Assembly: GCA_026387265.1 (NCBI GenBank)
Contig: JAPLLZ010000029.1
Span: forward strand, 1,064 to 65,063
DNA length: 64,000 nt
Direction: 5' to 3'
Origin: Candidatus Omnitrophota bacterium
GTDB taxonomy: Bacteria; Omnitrophota; Gorgyraeia; Gygaellales; Profunditerraquicolaceae
Shown here: positions 7,153-62,128 of the stretch, one piece after another
Numbering within the stretch: position 1 is the stretch's first letter
How the letters are laid out: every line of letters starts with the position of its first letter
Program-made: the position numbers and the translations under genes
Notes under the pieces: generated by a model
Seen by the model: the letters and a program-made list of their open reading frames with translations, nothing else
The model's database searches: none
What the model was told of the DNA's origin: nothing

Positions 7153-7184
7153 ATCCTTGCTCGCTGCGCTCGCAAGGATTTTTC
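7153..7184 (+). promoter_or_regulatory. Leader hairpin plus T-run (terminator/attenuator-like), ATCCTTRC-N11-GYAAGGAT module
   Basis: ATCCTTGC (7153-7160), 11-nt loop TCGCTGCGCTC, GCAAGGAT (7172-7179), then TTTTT; sits between the putative promoter and the purU SD AAGGAGG. Confidence 0.45.
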
Positions 7185-7208
7185 TGGATAAAGTATTAAG
7201 GAGGAGTT

Positions 7209-12049: not shown

Positions 12050-12447
12050 TGCGTAAGTGGATAATTTTCTTGAGTTTTTTTATTTTACAATTTTCTTGTG
12101 TAACAGTGTTTACGAAGTCGGACTCCTTTGCCCAGGAAGAGAAGGTGGATACGAATGAATGGGATTTTGGTGTGGTTAAGCAAGGGGATGTGTTAAAGCA
12201 TGATTTTATACTAAAAAACGAAACAAATGATATTCTGGAAATTAATAGTATTCATACTTCTTGCGGATGTACTGTTTCGCAGTCAGATAAAAAATCCTTA
12301 ATGCCGCAGGAAAGTACAGTGATTAAAGTAAGTTTTAATTCGCGTGGATATTTGGGTGAGGTTAAGCAATTTGTCTATGTTAATACTGATAATACGGATT
12401 TGGCAATAATTAAATTTACAATTAAAGCCCAAGTTGTAAAGGATTAA
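12049..12447 (+). CDS. DUF1573 domain protein (secreted)
   Basis: ATG 12049 overlaps the upstream stop (TAATG); signal peptide; HTSCGCT motif typical of DUF1573. Confidence 0.7.
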   Translation: MRKWIIFLSFFILQFSCVTVFTKSDSFAQEEKVDTNEWDFGVVKQGDVLKHDFILKNETNDILEINSIHTSCGCTVSQSDKKSLMPQESTVIKVSFNSRGYLGEVKQFVYVNTDNTDLAIIKFTIKAQVVKD

Positions 12448-12461
12448 ATTATAAAGGAACT

Positions 12462-12641
12462 TTCCGCCTCAGAAGCTATTTCAAAATTCTCTAGAATTTT
12501 GAAATATTCGGCGGAATAATCCTTACTCTTTTCATTCGTAAGGATTTCGCTAAACAAGAGCTAAGGGAGCTCAAATTCGCGGACACTCCAACAAGCTGGA
12601 GCTACAACTTACGTCGGCTGCGGCTTCCGTAAGTTGTCCGC
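12462..12641. repeat. Modular multi-hairpin repeat element, long copy (modules 1-4)
   Basis: Module 1 12462-12516 (TTCCGCC / TCAGAAGCT / 12-bp stem ATTTCAAAATTC / ATTC / GGCGGAA); module 2 12519-12545 (ATCCTTAC-N11-GTAAGGAT); module 3 12558-12572 (GAGCT-AAGGG-AGCTC); module 4 12579-12641 (GCGGACA ... ACAACTTACG-N14-CGTAAGTTGT ... TGTCCGC). Modules 1 and 4 recur at 40559-40674. Confidence 0.7.
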
Positions 12642-12663
12642 TCATTTAAGGAGGATTAATTCG

Positions 12664-13626
12664 ATGTGGTCATTACAGTTAAGAATGTGGTTGCTGGTAA
12701 CTTTGCTCTTTGGAATTATTTATGCTTTATTAGTTGTAGTGGGCAGTAGTTTTTTGCACGTAAGCAGTTTTAGTTTCTACCTGATTATCTCTTTAGTCAT
12801 GATGATTATTCAGTATATGGTAGGGCCTAAAATTGTAGAGTGGAGTATGCGCGTTAAGTATATTAAGAGAGAAGAGAACCCGCGCCTGTTTCAGATAGTA
12901 GAAAGTTTAAGTGTGCGCGCTAACATTCCCATGCCTAGAATTGGTATTGCTCAAATTGATATACCCAATGCTTTTGCTTTTGGCCGTTCTCTTAAGGACG
13001 GTAGAGTTTGTGTAACTAGCGGGATATTGAATTTACTTGATGAGGAAGAGTTAAAAGCTGTTCTTGGGCATGAATTAAGCCATTTAAAGAATCACGATGT
13101 GCTTACAATTACTTTGCTTTCAGTTATTCCAATGATTATGTACCGGATTGCCTGGCAGTTTTTATTTTATGGCCGCAGGCGTGATGAGCGGGGCGGCAAT
13201 ACCGTGTTAATCGGGCTGGCAGCCTTTTTGTTTTATTTTATAACCAATCTTTTAGTGCTTTATGCTTCGCGTATCCGGGAATATTTTGCTGACTGCGGTT
13301 CTGTGCTTTTGGGTAATCATCCGAAAGCTTTAGCCTCTAGCCTCTATAAGCTGGCTTATGGATCAGCTAAGTTAAACAAAGAAGAATTGAAGCAGACTGA
13401 AGGTTTAAAAGCATTTTTTATTAATGATCCGTCACAGGGGCGCAAGGAAGTGCTGGAGATATCACAATTAGATTTAGATAAAAGCGGTACGATTGATGCT
13501 TCTGAGCTGGAGTTGTTAAGAAGGTCGAATATACGTTTAAATTTGGGGGATAGGATGTTGGAGCTTTTAAGTACACATCCAAATATGCTTAAACGTATTA
13601 AAAGACTTTCAGAATATAAAGCTTAA
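12664..13626 (+). CDS. htpX: M48 family zinc protease HtpX
   Basis: HELSHLKNHD zinc site, TM helices, C-terminal STHPNMLKRI; ATG 12664 has AAGGAGG upstream (track start TTG 12634 lies inside the repeat). Confidence 0.85.
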   Translation: MWSLQLRMWLLVTLLFGIIYALLVVVGSSFLHVSSFSFYLIISLVMMIIQYMVGPKIVEWSMRVKYIKREENPRLFQIVESLSVRANIPMPRIGIAQIDIPNAFAFGRSLKDGRVCVTSGILNLLDEEELKAVLGHELSHLKNHDVLTITLLSVIPMIMYRIAWQFLFYGRRRDERGGNTVLIGLAAFLFYFITNLLVLYASRIREYFADCGSVLLGNHPKALASSLYKLAYGSAKLNKEELKQTEGLKAFFINDPSQGRKEVLEISQLDLDKSGTIDASELELLRRSNIRLNLGDRMLELLSTHPNMLKRIKRLSEYKA

Positions 13627-13644: not shown

Positions 13645-13690
13645 AAAACGGGGCCGTTTCAGCGATATTGATACGGCCCCGTTTTCTTTT
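13645..13690 (+). terminator. Rho-independent terminator after htpX
   Basis: AAAACGGGGCCGT (13645-13657) / ACGGCCCCGTTTT (13673-13685) GC-rich stem followed by a T-rich tract. Confidence 0.8.
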
Positions 13691-13717
13691 GACATAACCC
13701 TAAATATACTATATAAT
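13689..13717 (+). promoter_or_regulatory. Consensus sigma70 promoter of lysS (near-leaderless)
   Basis: TTGACA (13689-13694), 17 nt, TATAAT (13712-13717); lysS ATG at 13727, no SD. Confidence 0.6.
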
Positions 13718-13726
13718 TACTAAACT

Positions 13727-15190
13727 ATGGACATTAATGAGATTGTGCAGCAAAGAATTGCAAAATTAGAAGCATTGGGAAGCAAAAACGTGGTTTTGTA
13801 TCCGGCCAGCGTTCCTGCTCATATTACCATTGGGCAGGCTTTGAGCAGCTTTGAAGAAGGCAAGCAAGTTACTCTCTGTGGTAGGATTATGGCTAATCGA
13901 GCGCACGGAAAGGTCAACTTTATGGACCTGCGGGATACTACTGGTAAGATCCAGCTTTATATTAAGCGGGATGTTGTAGGGCAAGAGAAAGCGGAGCTGC
14001 TTGAGCAATTGGATATTGCTGACATTTTAAGCGTCAGCGGTGAGCTTTTTAAGACGCACACCGGTGAATTTACGGTGAAGGTTCTGGATTTTACGATATT
14101 ATCTAAGGCTTTACGGCCTTTACCTGAAAAATGGCATGGTTTGAAAGATGTGGAGTTGCGTTATCGGCAGCGTTATTTAGACCTGCTTTCTAATGAAGAT
14201 GTAAAAAAAGTATTTTTGTTGCGTGCTAAGATTATTCAGGCGATTCGCAGTTTTTTAGATTCCCGGGGATTTTTAGAAGTAGAAACTCCAATGATGCATG
14301 ATATCGCCGGAGGTGCAGCTGGCCGGCCTTTTAAGACCTTTCATAATGAATATAGCATGGATTTATATTTAAGGATTGCCCCGGAGTTATATTTAAAACG
14401 CCTTATCGTCGGCGGCCTGGACCGGGTTTATGAAATTAATCGTTCTTTTCGTAATGAAGGAGTCTCTACCCGGCATAACCCTGAGTTTACCATGTTAGAA
14501 GTTTATCAGGCTTATACAGATTATGAAGGCATGATTAGTTTAACGCAGGATTTAATTTGTCATATCACTAAAGAGGTTTTAGGCAAGGAAGAGTTGCTTT
14601 ATCAGGGTAAGACAATTGATCTTAAGACTCCTTGGAAGAGGCAATCCTTTGCTCAGCTGGTCAAGGATAAATTTGGGATCCAACCGCAGGATGAACCGGC
14701 GGTAATGCTGAATAAGTTGCAGGCTAAAGGGCTGGCTAAGGACCAGAACCGCCTGAGTCGTTCGCAGATCAATAAGATTGTGGAGGATGCGCTAGAGCAG
14801 GAACTTCTGGTTAATCCGACATTTATTACTGATTATTTTACCAGTCTTTGCCCTTTAGCCAAGACTAAGCAAGATAATCCTTTGATTTCAGAGAGATTTG
14901 AGCTTTATTTGGCCGGGATGGAGATTGCTAATGCTTATTCTGAGTTAAATAATCCTTTAGAACAGCGTCGGCGTTTTGAAGAGGAGATTAAGGATCTTAA
15001 TACCGATGAAAAGAAGAATGTTGATGAAGAGTATCTGTTGGCCCTGGAGCATGGTATGCCGCCGGCCGGAGGATTAGGTATTGGAATCGATCGACTGGTA
15101 ATGTTGCTTACAGATCAACCGTCTATTAGGGATGTGATTTTATTTCCTCTCTTACGTACACAGCAAGAGCAAGGAGAGGATAAGGTTTAA
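13727..15190 (+). CDS. lysS: Lysyl-tRNA synthetase, class II
   Basis: OB-fold anticodon-binding N-domain, class II motifs (SFRNEG, GGLGIGIDRLVMLL); 487 aa. Confidence 0.95.
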   Translation: MDINEIVQQRIAKLEALGSKNVVLYPASVPAHITIGQALSSFEEGKQVTLCGRIMANRAHGKVNFMDLRDTTGKIQLYIKRDVVGQEKAELLEQLDIADILSVSGELFKTHTGEFTVKVLDFTILSKALRPLPEKWHGLKDVELRYRQRYLDLLSNEDVKKVFLLRAKIIQAIRSFLDSRGFLEVETPMMHDIAGGAAGRPFKTFHNEYSMDLYLRIAPELYLKRLIVGGLDRVYEINRSFRNEGVSTRHNPEFTMLEVYQAYTDYEGMISLTQDLICHITKEVLGKEELLYQGKTIDLKTPWKRQSFAQLVKDKFGIQPQDEPAVMLNKLQAKGLAKDQNRLSRSQINKIVEDALEQELLVNPTFITDYFTSLCPLAKTKQDNPLISERFELYLAGMEIANAYSELNNPLEQRRRFEEEIKDLNTDEKKNVDEEYLLALEHGMPPAGGLGIGIDRLVMLLTDQPSIRDVILFPLLRTQQEQGEDKV

Positions 15191-16403: not shown

Positions 16404-17094
16404 AGAAATAATTAAAGTCAACTCGATTTGTAAGAGTTATCAGGATAACTTAACTAACCTGGAAGTATTAAAAAATATTAATTTTTCTGTTTTGGCGGGT
16501 GAATTCTTGGTAATTCAGGGGCCAAGCGGCGCAGGAAAGTCGACGCTTTTACATATTTTAGGCGGTTTGGATAATCCGACCCAAGGGAAAGTTTATTTTC
16601 AAGGAGCGGATATTTATGCCATAGATGAGAATAAGCGTTCTGCTTTGCGCAATGAGAAAATAGGTTTTGTTTTTCAGTTTTTTCATCTTTTGCCGGAGTT
16701 AAATGCTTTAGAGAATGTTTTGTTACCGGGAATTTTAAAATCCTGGTGGGATAGGAAAAAAAGCTTAGGCAAGGCGCTTGAACTTTTAGAAAGATTAGGA
16801 TTATCCTCCAGGTTAAAACATCGGCCGGGTGCTTTAAGCGGCGGAGAACAACAGAGAGTGGCGATTGCCCGGGCGTTAGTCAATTGTCCGCAGCTTTTAC
16901 TTTGTGATGAGCCTACGGGTAATTTAGATTCAGAGAATGGTAAAAATATCCTGCAGCTTTTAATTGAGCTTAACCGGGCTCAAAAGATTACCATTGTGAT
17001 GGTTACTCATGATAAAGATATTGCCTGTGGAGCCGGAAGAATTATTCATTTGAAGGATGGGGTTATTCTAGGAAATAATAATGATAAACACTAA
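16396..17094 (+). CDS. lolD: Lipoprotein-releasing ABC ATPase
   Basis: Walker A GPSGAGKST, signature LSGGEQQRVAIARAL, Walker B LLLCDEPTGNLD; overlaps lolE by 8 nt. Confidence 0.85.
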   Translation: MSEEIIKVNSICKSYQDNLTNLEVLKNINFSVLAGEFLVIQGPSGAGKSTLLHILGGLDNPTQGKVYFQGADIYAIDENKRSALRNEKIGFVFQFFHLLPELNALENVLLPGILKSWWDRKKSLGKALELLERLGLSSRLKHRPGALSGGEQQRVAIARALVNCPQLLLCDEPTGNLDSENGKNILQLLIELNRAQKITIVMVTHDKDIACGAGRIIHLKDGVILGNNNDKH

Positions 17095-17217
17095 ACCCGA
17101 AAAACGAAACTCTAAACAAACTCAAAATTCTAAACTCGAAACTCAAAACATTGGTTTAAAAATTTGAGTTTTGGATTTAGGATTTGTTTAGGATTTAGAG
17201 TTTAGTGTTTAGAGTTT
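17089..17217. repeat. Inverted heptamer-array element, copy 1
   Basis: Left arm of CNCTAAA/CTCGAAA-type heptamers (17089-17147), 15-nt centre, right arm of TTTAGRR/TTTGAG-type heptamers (17163-17217); begins in the last lolD codons, ends 4 nt before the ilvE SD. Confidence 0.7.
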
Positions 17218-17233
17218 ATTAAAGGAGGTAAGC

Positions 17234-18646: not shown

Positions 18647-19699
18647 ATGCAGATTAATGATTTAATTAATCATACTAGTGAATGGCTTAAAGGGACGGGG
18701 CCGCATTCGGATGTAGTTATTTCCAGCAGGATCCGCCTGGCTAGGAATTTAAATAAATTTCCTTTTCCACACTGGGCATCTAAGGCACAGCTAAATGAGG
18801 TTTTGGAAAAAACCAGTCAGGCGATGGGAAAAGTAGAATTGTTGAGTAAGGCTGCGCTTTTTATTCTGGCAAATTTAGATAGTATTGATAAGCAATTTTT
18901 AGTGGAAAGACATCTGATGTCGATTGAACATACTCAAAAAACAGAGCAGAAAGCGGTTCTGGTGAATGATGAAGAAAATATCTCAGTAATGATTAACGAA
19001 GAAGATCATTTGCGCATTCAGCTTATGCAGTCGGGCTTTAATCTTTTTGAAGCATGGGAGATTATTAATGGTATTGATGATGAGCTAGCTAAGCTGTTGG
19101 ATTATGCGTTTCTGGAGGATTTTGGTTATCTTACCGCTTGTCCGACGAATACCGGTACAGGTATGCGTGGTTCAGTAATGCTGCATTTACCCGCATTGGT
19201 AATGAGCCGGCAAATTGAGCGGGTGCTGGCGGCGATTGCTAAATTGAGCTTTACTACGCGCGGGCTTTACGGAGAAGGTACACAGGCCAGCGGTAATTTT
19301 TTTCAGATTTCCAACCAGGTTTCTTTAGGACATAGCGAAATGGAAATTATTGAAAATATTAATGGCCTCATCCGGCAGATTATTGAACAGGAAACGCAAG
19401 CCCGGGATATTATGTTGACTAAGAGCAGGGCGATTTTAGAAGACAGAATTAACCGTTCGTTAGGAATTTTAAAAAGTGCCCGGATAATTACCAGCCAGGA
19501 GACGATTGAATTGTTGTCTATGGTAAGATTGGGTAGTGATTTGGGAATGATTAAAGATATTGACCGGCGTACGATTAATGAACTTTTCATTATTACTCAG
19601 CCGGCGCATTTACAGAAGCTGGAGAATGTTAAGCTTTCATCGGACCAGAGGGATTTAAAGAGAGCGGAGTTGATTCGGAAAAAATTGAATTTATTATAA
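18647..19699 (+). CDS. mcsB: Protein arginine kinase McsB
   Basis: Phosphagen-kinase catalytic domain with CPTNTGTGMR; 350 aa; sits between mcsA and clpC. Confidence 0.9.
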   Translation: MQINDLINHTSEWLKGTGPHSDVVISSRIRLARNLNKFPFPHWASKAQLNEVLEKTSQAMGKVELLSKAALFILANLDSIDKQFLVERHLMSIEHTQKTEQKAVLVNDEENISVMINEEDHLRIQLMQSGFNLFEAWEIINGIDDELAKLLDYAFLEDFGYLTACPTNTGTGMRGSVMLHLPALVMSRQIERVLAAIAKLSFTTRGLYGEGTQASGNFFQISNQVSLGHSEMEIIENINGLIRQIIEQETQARDIMLTKSRAILEDRINRSLGILKSARIITSQETIELLSMVRLGSDLGMIKDIDRRTINELFIITQPAHLQKLENVKLSSDQRDLKRAELIRKKLNLL

Positions 19700-19807
19700 G
19701 GTCCTTTCTTATTTTGTGTTTGAATTATGTAGAGACGCAAAATTTTGTGTCTCTACAATACACAAAGGAAGGTTTACCCCTTTGGGGTAATGATTAGGAG
19801 AATAACC

Positions 19808-28296: not shown

Positions 28297-28980
28297 ATGG
28301 TTTATCTGATTAACATTTTAATTATATTGCTGGCGATTGCAGTAATTAAACTGGTGTTAATTTCTATCTTTTTCTATGCTGATATTAGGGCGGCGCAAAA
28401 AAGAGATCCTGCGGCGAAAAGTTTCTTAGAGATAATTTTACTTTATCCCGGGCTGCACGCTTTAGTTTATTATCGGATTGCGCATTTATTCTATGGAATA
28501 AGGTTATTCTTTTTAGCGCGCCTGTTATCTCAGGCCGGTAGGTTTTTTACCGGTATTGAAATTCATCCGGGAGCTAAAATCGGTAAACGTTTTTTTATTG
28601 ATCATGGGCTAGGAGTAGTGATTGGAGAGACGGCGGTTGTGGGTGATGATGTCCTGCTTTATCAGGGATCTACCTTGGGTGGAACCGGTATTGTTCAGGG
28701 TAAGCGCCATCCTACGGTTGGTAATAATGTGGTTATTGGAGCCGGAGCCAAAGTTTTGGGCAACATTGTTATCGGAGATAATTCTTATATTGGAGCAAAC
28801 GCAGTAGTGGTGAAAGATGTTCCGCCGAATTCTACAGTAGTGGGTGTTCCCGGTAGGATTACAAAACAGGATGGTAAGAAGATGGATGTCAGCCTGGATC
28901 ATGCGCGTATACTTGATCCGATTATGCAGACGATTGAAGAACTGCAGGATAGAGTTAAAGAATTAGAAAAGAATAAGTAA
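28297..28980 (+). CDS. cysE: Serine O-acetyltransferase
   Basis: [21 protein letters not shown], hexapeptide-repeat C-domain. ATG 28297 has a strong SD, giving an unusual hydrophobic roughly 25-aa N-terminal extension; GTG 28354 would give a canonical-length protein. Confidence 0.85.
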
Positions 28981-29113
28981 ACTCTAAACACGAAACCCTA
29001 AACTCTAAACAAACTCGAAACACTAAATCCGAATTTAAGAACTTACTTCTGAGTAATATTTGAGTTTCGGATTTAGGATTTGTTTAGGATTTCGAGTTTC
29101 GAATTTAGGATTT
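28979..29113. repeat. Inverted heptamer-array element, copy 2
   Basis: Left arm AAACTCTAAACACGAAACCCTAAACTCTAAACAAACTCGAAACACTAAATCCGAA, variable centre, right arm TTTGAGTTTCGGATTTAGGATTTGTTTAGGATTTCGAGTTTCGAATTTAGGATTT; fills the cysE-cysS spacer. Confidence 0.7.
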
Positions 29114-29120
29114 AATAATT

Positions 29121-40551: not shown

Positions 40552-40558
40552 CGAAAGC

Positions 40559-40674
40559 TTCGCCTCAGAATCTACACCAAAATTATCTGGAATTTTGGTG
40601 TATTCGGCGAAATTAATACGCAGACGGCCTAACGCCTACGACTTACGTCGCTTCCGCTTCCGTAAGTTGTCTGC
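40559..40674. repeat. Modular multi-hairpin repeat element, short copy (modules 1 and 4)
   Basis: Module 1 40559-40611 (TTCGCC / TCAGAATCT / stem ACACCAAAATT / ATTC / GGCGAA); module 4 40620-40674 (GCAGAC ... ACTTACG-N13-CGTAAGT ... GTCTGC); fills the spacer between convergent alr and lptG. Confidence 0.7.
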
Positions 40675-40677
40675 TTA

Positions 40678-41775
40678 TTAAGGTAGTTTTGAAATAAGAT
40701 AGAGGCTGCTGGATAGAATAATAATGTGGCTTAATGAAGCAGCCAGAATAGGCGTGATTAAACCGGATTTTCCTATAGCCAGGCAGATCGCATCCAGGAC
40801 ATAATAGAGAAAGCCCACGATAATTGAAACTCCGATAGAAGACATCCCCGTTGCGCGTTTACGCATCAGAAGAGAAAATGGTATTCCCAAAAGGATAATG
40901 ATGATACTGGTAAATGGTGAAGTGAAACGCTGATAAAGGTCGACCTTTAAATTCCTAATTACCGTAGTGGCTCCGCTTTTAGAGAGTATCCAGATATAGT
41001 CCTGCATTTGGCGGATATTCATTTGTTCCGGTTTTTGCCTTAAAGAGGCAAGATTTTCCGGGGTTTCCGGAATACTCATGATTTCTTCTTCCAAATAATT
41101 TGGCTCGTCAATTACCTGTCCATTGCTATCAAATTTATAAGTGATACTTTGCGAAAATCTCCACAGTCCATCTTGGTAGACTCCCCTAGTAGCGATGATT
41201 TTTTTAGTCAAATTCTGTTTTTCATCTTGCTCCAAAATGGTGATCCCTTCCATGGTTTTTGCAGCTGGTAAAAACCTGCTGATAAAAAATAATCTATTCC
41301 TCATACCGTAGAGCGTAAGGTTGGTGATTGCTTCATTTTTTTTAGGCTTACCTTTTGTGCCTTCTTCAATCTGGATTTTAATTTTTTGATTTTCGACAGA
41401 AGAGACAGGGACAAATCGGTCATTTACCCAGAATACTGCTAAGCTAATTAGTAAGCCAAAGATTAGGGCATTGCGGGCGATTTCAAATATACTTAAACCG
41501 CTTGAACGCATAGCAATAATTTCATTATTGTGGTTTAGTTTTCCGAAAGTATAAACCGTACTCAAGAGACAGGCAAAAGGGGAGACCTGCACAAACATAA
41601 TCGGCAGATATGAAACATAATAGCGTATCAGCAGCGCTAAGGTGGCTTGATGTTTTAATACTTCATCTAGATTAGAAAGTAGGTCGATAACGATATAAAG
41701 AAATAGAAATACAAAAATACAAGAAAAGAAAATATAAATAATTGATTTTAGGATATAGCGGTCTAAGATGCGCAT
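40678..41775 (-). CDS. lptG: LPS export ABC permease LptG
   Basis: LptF/LptG family: 6 TM with periplasmic insert; second of an overlapping pair. Confidence 0.8.
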   Translation of the reverse strand: MRILDRYILKSIIYIFFSCIFVFLFLYIVIDLLSNLDEVLKHQATLALLIRYYVSYLPIMFVQVSPFACLLSTVYTFGKLNHNNEIIAMRSSGLSIFEIARNALIFGLLISLAVFWVNDRFVPVSSVENQKIKIQIEEGTKGKPKKNEAITNLTLYGMRNRLFFISRFLPAAKTMEGITILEQDEKQNLTKKIIATRGVYQDGLWRFSQSITYKFDSNGQVIDEPNYLEEEIMSIPETPENLASLRQKPEQMNIRQMQDYIWILSKSGATTVIRNLKVDLYQRFTSPFTSIIIILLGIPFSLLMRKRATGMSSIGVSIIVGFLYYVLDAICLAIGKSGLITPILAASLSHIIILSSSLYLISKLP

Positions 41776-45524: not shown

Positions 45525-46898
45525 ATGGAAAAGATTTATTTAGCCTCCAATTCTAAGGCCAGAAAGAAATTATTAGAAAAATTTGGCCTGAAGTTTAAAA
45601 TCCTACCTTCTAAAGTTAAAGAGCAAACTCAACGCGGTAATTTATCATATCCTCAACTTGTGCAGAAGAACGCCCGTAAAAAAGCAGAAGAAGCAGCAGC
45701 TCGAGTAACTGGTGGAATTATTATTGCCGCCGATACTATTTGTGTGCAGAATGGTAAGATCTTCGGTAAACCGAAGAATATGGCAGCTGCCCGCCGGATG
45801 CTTCAACAATTATCCAGTAGGCCGCAATGGCTATACACCGGTTTGGCACTAATTAAAAAAACTAAAAGTAAACAAAAACTCCTGCTAGATTATGAAAGAG
45901 CAAGAGTTTATATGGATAAATTAAGCCCGGCGCAGATTGATAATTATTTTAAACAGGTTTCTCCTTTAGATAAAGCCGGTAGTTTTGATATCCAGGGCAA
46001 AGGGGCATTTTTTATTAAGCGAATCGATGGGTGTTTTTATAATGTAGTCGGACTGCCTTTGAGAAAATTATATCTGATGCTTAAAAAGTTTGATGTAAAA
46101 ATTCTTTCGTTTTTTTTAACGGCCACCAGTTGTTTATTAACTGCCGTGGTTTTGTCTGGCTGCTCTACGGAATATAATCTTGCTACTAAACAGGAGGAGA
46201 AATATTATTATAGTACGGATAAGGAAGTCCAGATGGGCCAGTCAATTAACCGTAGGGTAGAAAAAGAATTAAAATTTTCCGCAGATCCATTACAGCAAAA
46301 ACGCGTGGAGGATATTGGCAAAAAGGTAGCTGCCGTCAGCGATAGAAAAGAGATTGATTATTATTTCCGGGTTTTAGATGATGATGAGGTTAACGCTGTA
46401 TCTTTACCCGGAGGGTATGTTTATATTAACAGTGGATTGTTGGATAAAGTGGCTAATGATGATGAGTTGGCCTGTGTTTTAGCACACGAGGTAGGCCATA
46501 TTGTTGCCCGGCATAGCATAAAGAAACTTCAGGCGATGCAGAGTTATTCTATTTTAAGAGTGTTAGTGGCTGTAGCTCCTGGTGCTTCAGAGGTAGGCAG
46601 CGCCGCAGATGCTGCTTTTACTCAATTTTTGCTTGGCTATAACCGCGAAGATGAGCTATTAGCAGATCAACTGGGTGCCCGTTATGCTAAATTGGCTGGT
46701 TATGATCCACATAGCATGATTACTTTTTTAATTAAGTTGCAGGATATCAACCGTAGGATGCCGCTTAGAGAACAGTCGTATTATAAGACCCACCCTTATG
46801 TTCCTGATCGGATTAGAGTAGTTAAGCAGGAACTGGGGGAGCAGATTGATTTTGGGGACTACATCAATATTGAACAAGAAAGCCACCAGCCCCGTTAG
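45525..46898 (+). CDS. Maf nucleotide pyrophosphatase domain fused in frame to an M48 metalloprotease lipoprotein
   Basis: Residues 1-190 Maf-like (IYLASNSKARKKLLE, AGSFDIQG, YNVVGLPL). An internal ATG 46077 opens the lipoprotein signal MLKKFDVKILSFFLTATSCLLTAVVLSGC, followed by an M48 domain (HEVGHIVARH, THPYVPDRI). No stop codon lies between the two parts. Confidence 0.75.
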   Translation: MEKIYLASNSKARKKLLEKFGLKFKILPSKVKEQTQRGNLSYPQLVQKNARKKAEEAAARVTGGIIIAADTICVQNGKIFGKPKNMAAARRMLQQLSSRPQWLYTGLALIKKTKSKQKLLLDYERARVYMDKLSPAQIDNYFKQVSPLDKAGSFDIQGKGAFFIKRIDGCFYNVVGLPLRKLYLMLKKFDVKILSFFLTATSCLLTAVVLSGCSTEYNLATKQEEKYYYSTDKEVQMGQSINRRVEKELKFSADPLQQKRVEDIGKKVAAVSDRKEIDYYFRVLDDDEVNAVSLPGGYVYINSGLLDKVANDDELACVLAHEVGHIVARHSIKKLQAMQSYSILRVLVAVAPGASEVGSAADAAFTQFLLGYNREDELLADQLGARYAKLAGYDPHSMITFLIKLQDINRRMPLREQSYYKTHPYVPDRIRVVKQELGEQIDFGDYINIEQESHQPR

Positions 46899-46954
46899 AG
46901 ACAGGCTGCCGAAGGCAGCCGTTAGTTACCCTAGGTGTCTTGTCTCTAACGGGG
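46890..46954. repeat. 64-65-bp palindromic element (CCCCGTTAGAG...CTCTAACGGGG), intergenic copy
   Basis: 14-bp terminal inverted repeats CCCCGTTAGAGACA / TGTCTCTAACGGGG, internal hairpin GGCTGCC-GAA-GGCAGCC. Contains the upstream stop TAG (46896-46898) and ends on the G of the downstream GTG start. Confidence 0.75.
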
Positions 46955-48069
46955 TGAATAGAATAATTGCTCTCTTGGTAATTTTTTTGTTAACCTTTTG
47001 CCGTTTACCGGCAGGAGAGATTTCCGATAAGAAATATATGAAAAATAATGTGGCGCATTTAGACAAGGTAAATTTTGATAACCCTTTTGGGGTTTTGGAA
47101 TTTTTGCATTGGAATCATTCTTGGAATAATTATAAATATTCCAGCCAACGCGATTTGGAAGAAGTGGTTTCCCTTATGCGTGATGCTGGTGTGGGTTGGG
47201 TAAGGTGGGATTTTTTATGGTCAGATATCGAAGCTCAGGAGGGGAAGTTTGACTTTACTAAATATGACAATATTGTTAAGGTGCTTAAAAATAATGATAT
47301 TCATATTTTAGGTGTTTTACATTACAGTACAAATTGGGCTTCTTCCTGCGGCGAATGGAATTGTCCGCCTGAAGATAACCAGAAATTCGTAAATTACGCA
47401 AGCAAAGTTATCCAGCGCTATAAGGATCAAGTGAAGTATTGGGAGGTTTGGAATGAACCGGATTCAGCTATCTACTGGAAAAAGCAGGATAGTCTTAAGT
47501 CTTATTGTATTCTATTGAAAGAGGTTTATTTGGCAGCTAAAAAAATAGACCCTGATTGTAAGATTCTAAATGGCGGCATTGCCAATGGTTTAGTTAGTAT
47601 TAATCATTTGTATGATAATGGAGCAAAAGATTATTTTGATATATTAAACCTGCATTTTTTTGAAAGCCCTTTACATGGAAAAAATGGTATAAAGGCGGTA
47701 ATTAGTTATCCTAATCTTGCTTATAAAATAATGGTGCGTAATGGTGATGCGCATAAGAAAATCTGGATAACGGAGATTGGCTGCCCGGGGGTAGAATCCG
47801 GATTAAAGACAGATAATTGGTGGATGGGAGAGAATCCTGATGAGCGCCAACAGGCTGAATGGGTAAAAGAAGTTTATGGCGAATTGTTAAAAAATCAGCA
47901 GGTGGAAAAAATTTTCTGGGCCTTTTTCCGTGATACCAAGGAACATTGGGGTAATGGTGTTGATTATTTTTGTTTAGTGCGTTGGGATTATTCCACCAAG
48001 CCTTCCTTTGAAGCTTATCAAAAGCGTTATCAGGAGTGGAAAAAGAATAAAGCCGTAAGGCCTAAGTGA
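46954..48069 (+). CDS. Secreted clan GH-A (TIM-barrel) glycoside hydrolase-like protein
   Basis: GTG 46954 gives the signal peptide (M)NRIIALLVIFLLTFCRLPAG; YWEVWNEPD (acid/base Glu) and KIWITEIG (nucleophile Glu) signatures; the track start 46846 reads through the repeat. Confidence 0.65.
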   Translation: MNRIIALLVIFLLTFCRLPAGEISDKKYMKNNVAHLDKVNFDNPFGVLEFLHWNHSWNNYKYSSQRDLEEVVSLMRDAGVGWVRWDFLWSDIEAQEGKFDFTKYDNIVKVLKNNDIHILGVLHYSTNWASSCGEWNCPPEDNQKFVNYASKVIQRYKDQVKYWEVWNEPDSAIYWKKQDSLKSYCILLKEVYLAAKKIDPDCKILNGGIANGLVSINHLYDNGAKDYFDILNLHFFESPLHGKNGIKAVISYPNLAYKIMVRNGDAHKKIWITEIGCPGVESGLKTDNWWMGENPDERQQAEWVKEVYGELLKNQQVEKIFWAFFRDTKEHWGNGVDYFCLVRWDYSTKPSFEAYQKRYQEWKKNKAVRPK

Positions 48070-57492: not shown

Positions 57493-57573
57493 TGCGGGAG
57501 GAGGGAGTTGAACCCTCAAGGGTTACCCCACACGCTTCTGAGACGTGCGCGTATGCCATTCCGCCACTCCCGC
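57493..57573 (-). tRNA. tRNA-Leu (anticodon CAG)
   Basis: Hand-folded: acceptor GCGGGAG/CTCCCGC, D arm GCG-GAATGGCATA-CGC, anticodon arm CACGT-CTCAGAA-GCGTG, 13-nt variable arm, T arm GAGGG-TTCAACT-CCCTC, discriminator A; CCA not encoded. Confidence 0.9.
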
Positions 57574-57850
57574 AAAATTGATAACTTTTAATCTTTTATC
57601 TAGCGAAATCCCTGATCAAACGTTAGAAAGATCAAGGATGATCCCCGCAAGAATTGTGTGGGGTTCTTGAATTGATTAAGTATATCTTAGCCTGCTAATC
57701 CTGTCAATTGGATATCACCTTTTAGCTTTAAATAAATTGCGGTTGAGTTTTTTTGCTGTTATAATATATGACTTAGTATATTTTGAAATAATGATTCTAC
57801 CTGTTAGGTATAGGTTAATTTGTTTATAAGTTGCAGGAGGATATGGATTA

Positions 57851-59289: not shown

Positions 59290-59710
59290 GGGGGTGAAAG
59301 GGTTCGACTTAAGATATGTCGCTTAAGAGCAGCATGCCGCGGATGTAAGGTTAGCCGCGTTAACAATCCTTGCACAATTCAAACGCAAACACAAAAACAC
59401 CAGTGTTCACAAACCGATTGGCAGCGTTACCGGGTTTTCAGCCGGTAGCATTTCCAGCTGGTTGCGTACCAGTCTTAGCGTTTAATTAAACGCTAAGCCT
59501 CTAGCTGTCCTGCCTACGGGATAGATTAGAGCTCAAGTAGGATAGTCCCGGCGGTTAGCCTTCCAAACCGGGGCAAAATCGAAAAGGCTGCATCTTGCAA
59601 ATCCTGCCGGGTAGGAGTTGCAAGGTTAAGAATAAATTACCAGGCTAAGCATGTAGCGGTTTTTAGGTGATTACTTAAGGACGGCGGTCCGATTCCGCCC
59701 ACCTCCACCA
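59290..59710 (+). ncRNA. ssrA: tmRNA (SsrA)
   Basis: 5' GGGGGTGAAAGGGTTCGAC; 3' tRNA-like end GGACGGCGGTCCGATTCCGCCCACCTCCACCA. The acceptor pairs GGGGGTG/CACCTCC with the G3-U pair. Tag ORF 59385-59489 has its stop in the loop of the CTTAGCGTTT/AAACGCTAAG hairpin. Confidence 0.9.
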
Positions 59711-61689: not shown

Positions 61690-62128
61690 CTTAAAAGTAC
61701 AGGGGACTTTTAGTTCTGCGCATAATTTAAGAGGCTATAAAGGTAAATGTGAAGATTTGCATGGGCATAATTGGGTAGTGGAGATAGTGGTTAAATCTAA
61801 GAGGCTAGATAATATCGGCATGGTTTTGGATTTTAAATTCCTGAAGAAAAAATTAAATGTTTGTTTAGAGCAGATGGATCATAAGTATCTTAATCAACTG
61901 TCTTATTTTAAAAAAGTAAACCCCGTTAGAGGCAGGGCGCCGAAGGTAACCGACGGCTGCCTGCGGCAGCCTGCCTCTAACGGGGTAAATCCAACCTCTG
62001 AAAATATTGCTAAATATGTTTATGATCAACTTAAATCTTCGATTCCTTTATTAAATTGTGTAACGGTCTGGGAAAATAGTACAAGCAGCGCTACCTATGA
62101 ACCTAGCCCTTCCTCGGGTAGGGATTAA
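61682..62128 (+). CDS. queD: 6-carboxy-5,6,7,8-tetrahydropterin synthase QueD, carrying a 23-codon repeat-derived insertion
   Basis: FSSAHNLRGYKGKCEDLHGHNW, MDHKYLN, NPTSENIAKY motifs; 148 aa versus the roughly 120 aa I recall as typical. Confidence 0.85.
   Translation: MYSLKVQGTFSSAHNLRGYKGKCEDLHGHNWVVEIVVKSKRLDNIGMVLDFKFLKKKLNVCLEQMDHKYLNQLSYFKKVNPVRGRAPKVTDGCLRQPASNGVNPTSENIAKYVYDQLKSSIPLLNCVTVWENSTSSATYEPSPSSGRD
61921..61984. repeat. 64-bp palindromic element (CCCCGTTAGAG...CTCTAACGGGG), copy inside queD
   Basis: Termini CCCCGTTAGAGGCAGG / CCTGCCTCTAACGGGG; the internal part (GGTAACCGACGGCTGCCTGCGGCAGCC) matches the reverse complement of the internal part of 46890-46954; flanked by GTAAAYCC 69 bp apart. 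Confidence 0.8.

Follow-up and report, generated by a model that had tools for sequence, protein, structure and literature searches.

A modular family of hairpin repeats in intergenic junctions of Candidatus Omnitrophota

Structure of the element in the DUF1573–htpX spacer

The 64,000-nucleotide stretch of DNA analysed here, called the window, covers positions 1,064–65,063 of contig JAPLLZ010000029.1 (assembly GCA_026387265.1) from a bacterium of Candidatus Omnitrophota, a phylum of ultra-small bacteria that have compact genomes and are uncultivated. The spacer between a DUF1573 gene and htpX is occupied by an element composed of four modules (copy A), and a second copy that consists of two modules (copy B) lies between alr and lptG. 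Copy A belongs to a family of modular repeats with conserved pairing, which has been found in a single taxon, is present or absent at the same site in close relatives and, where it carries its first module, always lies in the same orientation as the neighbouring genes.

The stop codon of the DUF1573 gene (TAA, 12445–12447) is followed by a 5′ flank (12448–12461, + strand) containing the Shine–Dalgarno (SD)-like motif ATAAAGGAAC; TAAGGAAG-like purines lie 2–10 nucleotides 5′ of module 1 in about 20 of 32 copies of the family. Module 1 (P1; 12462–12516, +) is a long bulged hairpin capped by a tetraloop. Its outer stem is formed by 7 base pairs between TTCCGCC (12462–12468) and GGCGGAA (12510–12516), and its inner stem by 12–13 base pairs between ATTTCAAAATTC (12478–12489) and GAATTTTGAAAT (12494–12505). 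An earlier, sequence-only reading of the window had described four hairpin modules at 12462–12641, and all the inverted repeats that it listed are present. Both stems that it assigned to module 1 exist; however, the asymmetric internal loop that it placed between them holds three GAA/UUC pairs, which leaves two small bulges. The order of P1 from the outside in is therefore 7 base pairs, a 3-nucleotide UCA bulge, the three GAA/UUC pairs, a 2-nucleotide bulge, the inner stem, and the tetraloop. A kink-turn at the UCA bulge was considered and rejected on inspection, because the strand facing the bulge, UUC, pairs with GAA and provides no tandem G-A pairs.

Module 2 (12518–12546, +) is a 9-base-pair hairpin of AATCCTTAC (12518–12526) and GTAAGGATT (12538–12546) with an ATCC...GGAT base. 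Module 3 (12547–12574, +), also called tail B, reads TCGCTAAAC..GAGCTAAGGGAGCTCAA (nhmmer E-value 3.7e-20) and contains in copy A a 5-base-pair hairpin of GAGCT (12558–12562) and AGCTC (12568–12572). The description of modules 2 and 3 as simple hairpins thus holds for copy A; however, the module 3 hairpin has been found only in the window and at one other locus (L051), and elsewhere the stretch is a conserved linear tail with the SD-like motif TAAGGTG. Module 4 (P2; 12573–12647, +) is a three-way junction followed by the tail TCATTT. Its stem comprises GCGG (12579–12582) paired with CCGC (12638–12641) and ACAACTTACG (12604–12613) paired with CGTAAGTTGT (12628–12637), and a side hairpin of CTCCA (12586–12590) and TGGAG (12597–12601) makes the junction. 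A basal helix is formed by AAAU of the linker (12573–12576) and AUUU of the tail (12644–12647) across a UC/UC internal loop. The nested arrangement previously assigned to module 4, in which GCGGACA/TGTCCGC encloses ACAACTTACG/CGTAAGTTGT, is one of two mutually exclusive registers, since the outer and inner stems share TGT and cannot both form completely.

The conserved 3′ tail TCATTT (12642–12647) is part of the element, and the element therefore directly abuts the SD sequence of htpX instead of ending 7 nucleotides before it, as had been thought. The start region of htpX (12648–12666, +) contains, besides the SD sequence AAGGAGG (12648–12654) and the ATG at 12664, a duplicated GGATTAA. About 120 close homologues of HtpX are all 320 residues long and align over 100% of the query. 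Therefore, htpX starts at ATG 12664, and the earlier proposal that TTG 12634 is artefactual is borne out.

Folded as RNA, the 211-nucleotide spacer containing copy A has a predicted energy of −70.5 kcal/mol, compared with −47.0 ± 4.1 kcal/mol for dinucleotide shuffles (z −5.7; 0 of 200 as good), and the region of copy B (40552–40690) has a z of −5.2; the folding check asked of the element thus succeeds for both copies. The opposite strands of the two copies fold with energies as good as those of the sense strands, so fold energy alone cannot tell which strand is functional.

Copy B consists of P1 (40559–40611, +), which begins 7 nucleotides past the stop codon of alr, and P2 (40612–40681, +), which has a decayed tail, CTTATTAAGGTAG, and reaches the stop codon of the convergent gene lptG (40678–40680). 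The alignment of the two copies agrees with the earlier observation that modules 1 and 4 recur at 40559–40674 without modules 2 and 3, and extends the element there to 40681. The differences between the copies include compensatory replacements of TTTC/GAAA in copy A by CACC/GGTG in copy B in module 1, and of GCGG/CCGC by GCAG/CTGC in module 4. Covariance models of P1 (R1) and P2 (R2), used for scanning loci, score 84.6 and 61.7 bits for copy A and 71 and 58.2 bits for copy B, respectively.

Extent of the family and covariation of its helices

Loci containing P1 were retrieved with a degenerate pattern in which the fixed positions, 20–22 nucleotides in total, were limited to unpaired and outer parts of P1; conservation at those positions is therefore not independent evidence. 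Ten loci were found in a collection of species-representative genomes, in metagenome-assembled genomes of Candidatus Omnitrophota/Omnitrophica plus one labelled Planctomycetales. The same kind of pattern retrieved 33 loci from metagenomes, three of which are chance matches without the stem, leaving about 30. No family copies were found by a pattern scan of viral contigs or by BLAST against plasmids. At the gathering threshold, an Rfam scan of the whole window matched no family to the element and reported only a transfer-messenger RNA (tmRNA) and one tRNA, and a permissive scan of 12300–12800 gave only chance-level matches of at most 16 bits. The tmRNA gene is located at 59290–59710 (+; 165 bits). 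No description of the family was found in the literature on repeats or RNA motifs of Omnitrophota. The matches thus point to a previously undescribed family, absent from Rfam and the searchable literature, that appears to be clade-specific within Candidatus Omnitrophota.

Both P1 and P2 show strong covariation, counted over sequences that are not independent events. For P1 (31 distinct sequences), the share of paired cells is 97.0%, with changes on both sides in 9 pairs (score 0.235, compared with 0.105 for shuffles); for P2 (27 sequences), the corresponding values are 98.7% and 12 pairs (score 0.307, compared with 0.117). None of 500 shuffles reached the score or the percentage of paired cells of either module. 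The pairing of P1 drops to 32–50% when the partners are slid by 1–3 columns, and RNAalifold independently arrives at this structure of P1, counting 11 compensated pairs. Between copies that sit at one and the same gene in different species, 41 pairs are compensated, 5 show wobble changes, and 6 are broken. The further copies in genomes and metagenomes, and the persistence of covariation with about 30 sequences aligned, bear out the earlier expectation of a structured element that recurs. Positions in the linker and tail that are unpaired and were left free in the search pattern are also conserved. At internal stem positions of the sense strand there are about 12 G-U (G-T) wobbles and 2–3 A-C mismatches, an excess that weakly supports selection on the transcript or the top strand; the ratio over all pairs, 14 to 10, is uninformative.

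Modular organization

The family is built from P1 (a bulged 23-base-pair hairpin), the shorter ATCC...GGAT hairpin of module 2, P2, and two AU-rich 3′ tails. In the common form, P1 is followed by the linker ATAAATTC, P2, the tail (C/T)TCATTTAAAGGAGG, 5–8 nucleotides, and a start codon; the linker of filled loci includes AUAAAUUC. P2 occurs in two types: type 1 is a three-way junction, GCAGAC-hairpin-TACAACTTACG...CGTAAGTTGTCTGC, and type 2 is a plain long hairpin, GCGCATTAACTTAC...GTAAGTTAAGCGC. Tail A has the form ..GYTCATTTAA and tail B the form TTTCGCTARAY..TAAGGTGCTCAA.

As the sequence-only reading had anticipated, the choice and number of modules vary among copies. Apart from the common P1–P2, the combinations are P1–P2–P2 (L031), P1 with a tail, P2 alone, and the four-module composite. 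Tail B follows P1 in L004, L018, and L029, where it supplies the SD sequence before the start codon; the P1 of L029 is diverged. In L023, L033, L035, L037, and L041, P2 occurs without P1 and follows different hairpins, which share the ATCC...GGAT base. Modules 2 and 3 are recurrent, following P1 upstream of nusB in L028 and L037 and accompanying P1 and P2 in L051, and the full composite recurs in these three loci, where the module 2 homologues have TTGC/GCAA in place of TTAC/GTAA. Hairpins of the module 2 type are also present in L033, L037, and L018, and in the window at 7153–7179.

The latter belongs to one of two related units of the window that were found with a hidden Markov model of modules 2 and 3. 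The first (7153–7206, +; nhmmer E-value 2.2e-05) consists of the hairpin ATCCTTGC/GCAAGGAT and a tail-B-like stretch with an SD sequence, and directly precedes a purU-like gene (ATG 7209). The second (57572–57644, −; E-value 3.6e-05) combines a module-2-type hairpin with a tail B whose SD sequence is decayed (TTTCGCTAGATAAAAGATTAAAAGT), and lies immediately upstream of a tRNA gene (57493–57573, −). A TTGACA-17-TATACT promoter is located about 100 nucleotides upstream of this tRNA gene, and the leader contains the unit. In general, the tails are intact as SD sequences before open reading frames (ORFs) and decayed before tRNA genes (the second unit and L035) and in convergent spacers, where that of copy B reads AAGGTAG.

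Position and orientation relative to genes

All copies bearing P1 are in sense. An ORF on the same strand ends 0–166 nucleotides, and often 0–20 nucleotides, before P1; the exceptions are L024 and L009, in which the ORF script found none. About 21 different genes follow in the same orientation as P1. They include rpsM, rplS, the L27 gene, rpmE, infA, prfB, tig, nusB, clpC, and htpX, and further pfkA, lpxD, serA-like, nifU-like, msbA-like, and mgtC-like genes, the gene of a CBM48 protein, and others. Two tRNA genes also lie downstream of units of the family. Two sites, copy B and L051, are convergent spacers. Variants with P2 only are sometimes antisense (L033:4596, L041:3783).

The 3′ junction is invariably CTCAT(T)/TA, where the slash marks the boundary, and abuts the SD sequence or the start codon of the next gene. 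At three loci (L018, L019, L038), P1 begins 9–11 nucleotides past the −10 box of a promoter, which would place it at the extreme 5′ end of the transcript. Copies typically fill the whole space from a stop codon, or from the transcription start, to the next SD sequence, start codon, or tRNA. Most copies have AAAGGAGG between the tail and the start codon; in L002 (511–523), L016, and L003, nusB and lpxD start directly after the tail (CTCATTTA-ATG, CTCATTT-ATG) with no recognisable SD sequence. The strict sense orientation, the SD-bearing tails, and the presence in tRNA leaders are three unusual features of the family.

Gain and loss at shared sites

Five syntenic relatives, the HtpX proteins of which are 86–95% identical to that of the window (L044, L046, L047, L049, L050), have DUF1573–htpX spacers of 4–30 nucleotides, compared with 216 nucleotides in the window, and contain no P1 or P2 match there. 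Their empty sites read GTAAAGGAGGATTAAtcaaATG, with the SD sequence of htpX within the last codons of the DUF1573 gene. The absence of the element from close syntenic relatives identifies the window copy as a lineage-specific insertion. Copy A therefore appears to be a recent acquisition and not a dedicated regulator of htpX.

The junction in the window has the organization GTAAAGGATTAA-ATTATAAAGGAACTT-P1..P2-TCATT-TAAGGAGGATTAAttcgATG. Comparison with the five empty sites shows that the insertion is flanked on either side by GGATTAA, and possibly by AAGGAGGATTAA, of which one GGA would have been lost. SD-like direct repeats flank many other copies; they match within a locus no better than between loci, and no duplication is evident at the site of the CBM48 gene. 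A target duplication of fixed length was not reproducible across loci.

The nearest relative, STB_134, is element-free at htpX and carries P1–P2 upstream of pfkA (L007). In its alr–lptG spacer it has the full four-module composite in inverted orientation (L051), compared with P1–P2 (+) in the window. The inverted element has taken the place of the alr stop codon, so that the ORF (L051, 10001–11155) runs 11 codons into the element and encodes an Alr of 384 instead of 373 residues. The same spacer contains only an ordinary terminator hairpin in L052. The site of clpC and that of the CBM48 gene also vary among genomes, holding the element, nothing, or unrelated hairpins: at clpC, the window has two unrelated hairpins (GTAGAGACGCAAAATTTTGTGTCTCTAC, GGTTTACCCCTTTGGGGTAA; 19650–19807), L006 and L033 have P1–P2, and L044, L047, and L049 have nothing. 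Intergenic junctions of the clade are hot spots for insertions of differing hairpins.

Such polymorphism in presence and orientation among close relatives is also what would be expected if the element acted in DNA, as a substrate of a Y1 or REP-associated tyrosine transposase (RAYT) or another recombinase in the manner of repetitive extragenic palindromes (REPs) and REPINs, or as a site for a nucleoid protein or gyrase, its hairpins being selected as single-stranded DNA without a role in RNA. The equal folding of both strands fits this explanation, as does the placement of P1 copies, which are extragenic, downstream of ORFs, and next to co-directional or convergent ones, as reported for REPs (PMC3733652). 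The alr–lptG spacer of L053 (11107–12725) contains a RAYT-like gene for a 185-residue Y1 transposase, the best match of which is NF047646 (REP-associated tyrosine transposase; 62.9 bits, below the cut-off of 80), and a gene for a SHOCT-domain protein. However, the two genes are flanked by three copies of the hairpin GGGGACGGTTCTC..GAGAACCGTCCCC, which is the terminator hairpin of L052 and not P1 or P2, and this speaks against a link of the family to this RAYT-like gene; tblastn detected no other Y1 gene in 0.49 Mb including the window and the other loci. The family also lacks GTAG or CGTC tags and inverted doublets. Its strict sense orientation is more easily explained at the level of the transcript, although a bias between replication strands could mimic it, and the excess of G-T over A-C on the sense strand and the decay of SD tails where no ORF follows argue in the same direction. 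An element acting in DNA only is therefore considered unlikely.

Relation to signals of transcription and translation

No + strand promoter was found in the DUF1573–htpX spacer or inside the element; a candidate, TTGGCA..TAAATT, was rejected by eye because its 12-nucleotide spacer is too short. The gene htpX is therefore presumably co-transcribed with the DUF1573 gene, with the element within the mRNA. The gene lysS (ATG 13727) starts 9 nucleotides after a perfect sigma-70 promoter, TTGACA-17-TATAAT (13689–13729); its mRNA would be essentially leaderless and lack an SD sequence, and the block from the promoter to the ATG is conserved in L044, L046, and L047.

Stable hairpins between DUF1573 and htpX could in principle form a transcription terminator or attenuator, and copy B is located where relatives have a terminator hairpin in the alr–lptG spacer. 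However, neither P1 nor P2 is followed by a U-tract on the + strand, and a terminator scan found no + strand terminator-like site in 12462–12660 or 40559–40681. Since the organism uses canonical hairpin-plus-U terminators elsewhere, for example after htpX, the element is not a terminator by these signs. Most copies are also inside operons before essential genes, which makes termination an extremely improbable function.

The predicted state of the SD sequence is not altered by the element. Its mean unpaired probability in silico over 23 copies is 0.67 in the native context, 0.65 when the element is removed, and 0.61 when it is inverted, which argues against an SD-sequestering switch. Sequestration of the SD by the CCUC of P1 is seen in one minimum-free-energy structure only, and the ensembles of the 23 copies show no such effect; a riboswitch or thermometer leader of the SD-sequestering type was rejected on the same grounds.

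A dedicated cis-regulatory leader RNA could act by other means, with P1, P2, and the tail serving as a platform for a specific protein, such as a Nus factor at a BoxA-like tail, a ribosomal protein, or another RNA-binding protein, which would co-regulate a translation and proteostasis regulon at the SD. The downstream genes from rpsM to htpX listed above, with nusB in four species, and the two tRNA genes fit such a regulon, and so do the strict sense orientation at a fixed distance from the SD, the conserved unpaired positions of linker and tail outside the search pattern, and retention at the same gene across species. In gamma-proteobacteria, translation-related genes are regulated by BoxA motifs that lie no more than 50 nucleotides from start codons and have the consensus GYTCTTTAANA (PMC5725501), which tail A (GYTCATTTAAA) matches in 8 of 10 specified positions. 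None of the loci analysed contains rRNA, the leader of which would carry the BoxA of the clade itself. However, the two mismatches remain, the tail is largely paired with the linker, tail B has no BoxA match, and the other matches to the tail-A/BoxA pattern are apparently within coding sequences, as judged by sequence context. Moreover, htpX, clpC, and the CBM48 gene do without the element in close relatives, the module make-up at one gene varies by species, the copies in convergent spacers (copy B and L051) have no downstream gene, and SD accessibility is predicted to be unaffected. A dedicated leader is thus quite improbable.

The element could alternatively be a processing signal, either a substrate of RNase III or a new self-cleaving ribozyme, that would split operon transcripts into mRNAs of separate stability and shorten the leaders of tRNAs. 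Its two bulged helices of about 22 base pairs, or about two turns each, can be likened to the sites for RNase III between cistrons of phage T7, and their conserved bulges, the symmetric UC/UC loops, and the intercistronic and tRNA-leader locations are in keeping with processing. Correia elements are reported targets of RNase III, and ERIC sequences have been reported to trigger cleavage by RNase E (PMC3049150). Against it stand the facts that no ribozyme family of Rfam was matched, that no conserved tertiary or pseudoknot covariation was found, and that single modules also occur alone. Cleavage as the basis of the family is accordingly judged very unlikely.

Proposed role

On balance, a somewhat better than even case can be made that the elements are a mobile, or repeatedly gained and lost, modular family of self-folding intergenic repeats that are transcribed within mRNAs, copy A being one of the insertions. 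Units would be gained, lost, and recombined between close relatives, and copies bearing P1 would survive only in sense and downstream of a gene, where the transcribed operon mRNA would include them. Every module would then fold on itself, so that the inserted 115–180 nucleotides would be looped out, the stop codon, SD sequence, and start codon would stay near each other, and the SD would remain single-stranded. Such looping-out would explain both the tolerance of the element in 4-nucleotide intercistronic junctions and the compensatory pairing. Stable hairpins at 5′ ends or between cistrons may be passive barriers to mRNA decay or may punctuate processing, and by analogy this is the most likely action of the modules. 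Roles in mRNA decay or processing have been reported for REPs and bacterial interspersed mosaic elements (BIMEs) and for ERIC, Correia, and BOX repeats (PMC3049150, PMC3733652).

Several observations weigh against this explanation. Neither a transposase nor terminal inverted repeats nor a clean duplication of the target were identified, and the htpX site has three SD-like motifs, which simple cut-and-paste does not produce. The P1 columns fixed by the search pattern are uninformative, and many of the P2 compensations are fixed differences between the two types of P2, so that there are fewer independent events than the cell counts indicate. The conservation of bulges, linker, and tail exceeds the needs of a passive hairpin and might be maintained for a protein partner or for mobility instead. 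Functions in translation and proteostasis are enriched among the downstream genes, and the element is kept at the same gene across species at nusB (four species), rpmE, clpC, nifU, and the L27 gene, which suggests host-level retention over pure parasitism.

In a more speculative scheme, a sense-locked mobile leader cassette would have been domesticated by Omnitrophota as general post-transcriptional punctuation. A specific factor, namely the Nus complex, an RNase, or a ribosomal protein, would be recruited by its conserved bulges, its UC/UC loops, and its BoxA-like tail. By bringing its own SD sequence, the cassette would control how stable or how well translated highly expressed genes and tRNA precursors are across the clade. 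This combination is decidedly unlikely.

Other palindromic repeats of the window

Two further repeats are present in the window. A second repeat family (17085–17222 and 28978–29118) comprises AT-rich imperfect long hairpins of about 140 nucleotides (TAAACnCTAAAC.../...GTTTAGaGTTTA), which fill the spacers from stop codon to SD sequence before ilvE (ATG 17236) and cysS (ATG 29122). A third, palindromic repeat of 70 nucleotides (CCCCGTTAGAGaCAGG...CCTGtCTCTAACGGGG) occurs at 46890–46959 and 61921–61990 with 73% identity; one of its copies is located at a gene junction and the other inside a 148-residue ORF of doubtful reality.

Comparison with known systems

The sequence-only reading had called the element mosaic in the manner of BIMEs. 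This stands for its behaviour: like REPs, BIMEs, and REPINs, the family is extragenic, hairpin-forming, multi-copy, composed of mosaic units, located downstream of coding regions next to co-directional or convergent neighbours, variable between relatives, and plausibly transcribed. It does not stand for the anatomy. A REP is an imperfect palindrome of 20–40 base pairs that has a GTAG or CGTC tag left unpaired at one end (PMC3733652), whereas the units of the present family are 55–75 nucleotides long and have no tag at the flanks of P1 (..ACTT/TCCGCC and GGCGGAA/TAA) or P2 (AATTC/GCGG and CCGC/TCATTT). The units of REPs, BIMEs, and REPINs are paired in inverted orientation, either by Y/Z alternation or as REP doublets that form a larger hairpin; by contrast, every aligned copy here has the same direct order of modules on one strand. 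The family is also unrelated to REPs and BIMEs in sequence, is strictly in sense, has a 3′ tail that abuts or carries the SD, and has no linked RAYT that could be found.

Variable modules, stable RNA folds, and intergenic positions that are often upstream of genes are shared with the BOX elements (boxA-boxB-boxC) of Streptococcus pneumoniae, which are transcribed with their neighbours and have a reported effect on the expression of the downstream gene (PMC3049150). However, BOX elements have terminal inverted repeats and target duplications, which in the present family are missing and ambiguous, respectively, and they are unrelated in sequence and belong to another phylum. ERIC sequences (IRU) and Correia elements (NEMIS) are likewise imperfect palindromes of 100–160 base pairs in transcribed intergenic regions, with orientation-dependent effects on mRNA through cleavage by RNase E or RNase III (PMC3049150). 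Unlike the present family, each consists of one long palindrome that has terminal inverted repeats and a TA duplication; they occur in both orientations and have neither separable modules nor an SD tail. As in miniature inverted-repeat transposable elements, the elements are small, non-coding, multi-copy, and polymorphic in presence and absence; however, the 5′ end ..GGAACTTTCCGCCTCAG is unrelated to the reverse-complemented 3′ end AAATGAGCGGACAAC, and the ends are instead directly similar (CCGCCTCA and CCGCTCA).

The ompA-type 5′ stem-loop and the intercistronic sites of phage T7 are stabiliser hairpins. A hairpin near the predicted start of a transcript (L018, L019, L038) or between cistrons, followed by a free SD, resembles them. 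They differ in being signals of single loci or of a phage, whereas the present family is interspersed and polymorphic, and its stabilising role is putative.

The simple rule that the copies follow, in sense only, filling the space from stop codon to SD, and leaving the SD free, offers a natural test of RNA-level selection and of the tolerance of coupled operon junctions for structured RNA. The family also accounts for spurious upstream starts, such as TTG 12634, and for C-terminal extensions, such as that of Alr in L051, in automated annotation, and the covariance models R1 and R2 can be used to mask or annotate the repeats. As it lacks defining features of BIMEs and BOX elements, the family is an analogue and not a member of these groups. 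Nearly all work on small interspersed hairpin repeats has concerned Proteobacteria, streptococci, and Neisseria, and the present family extends them to Omnitrophota.

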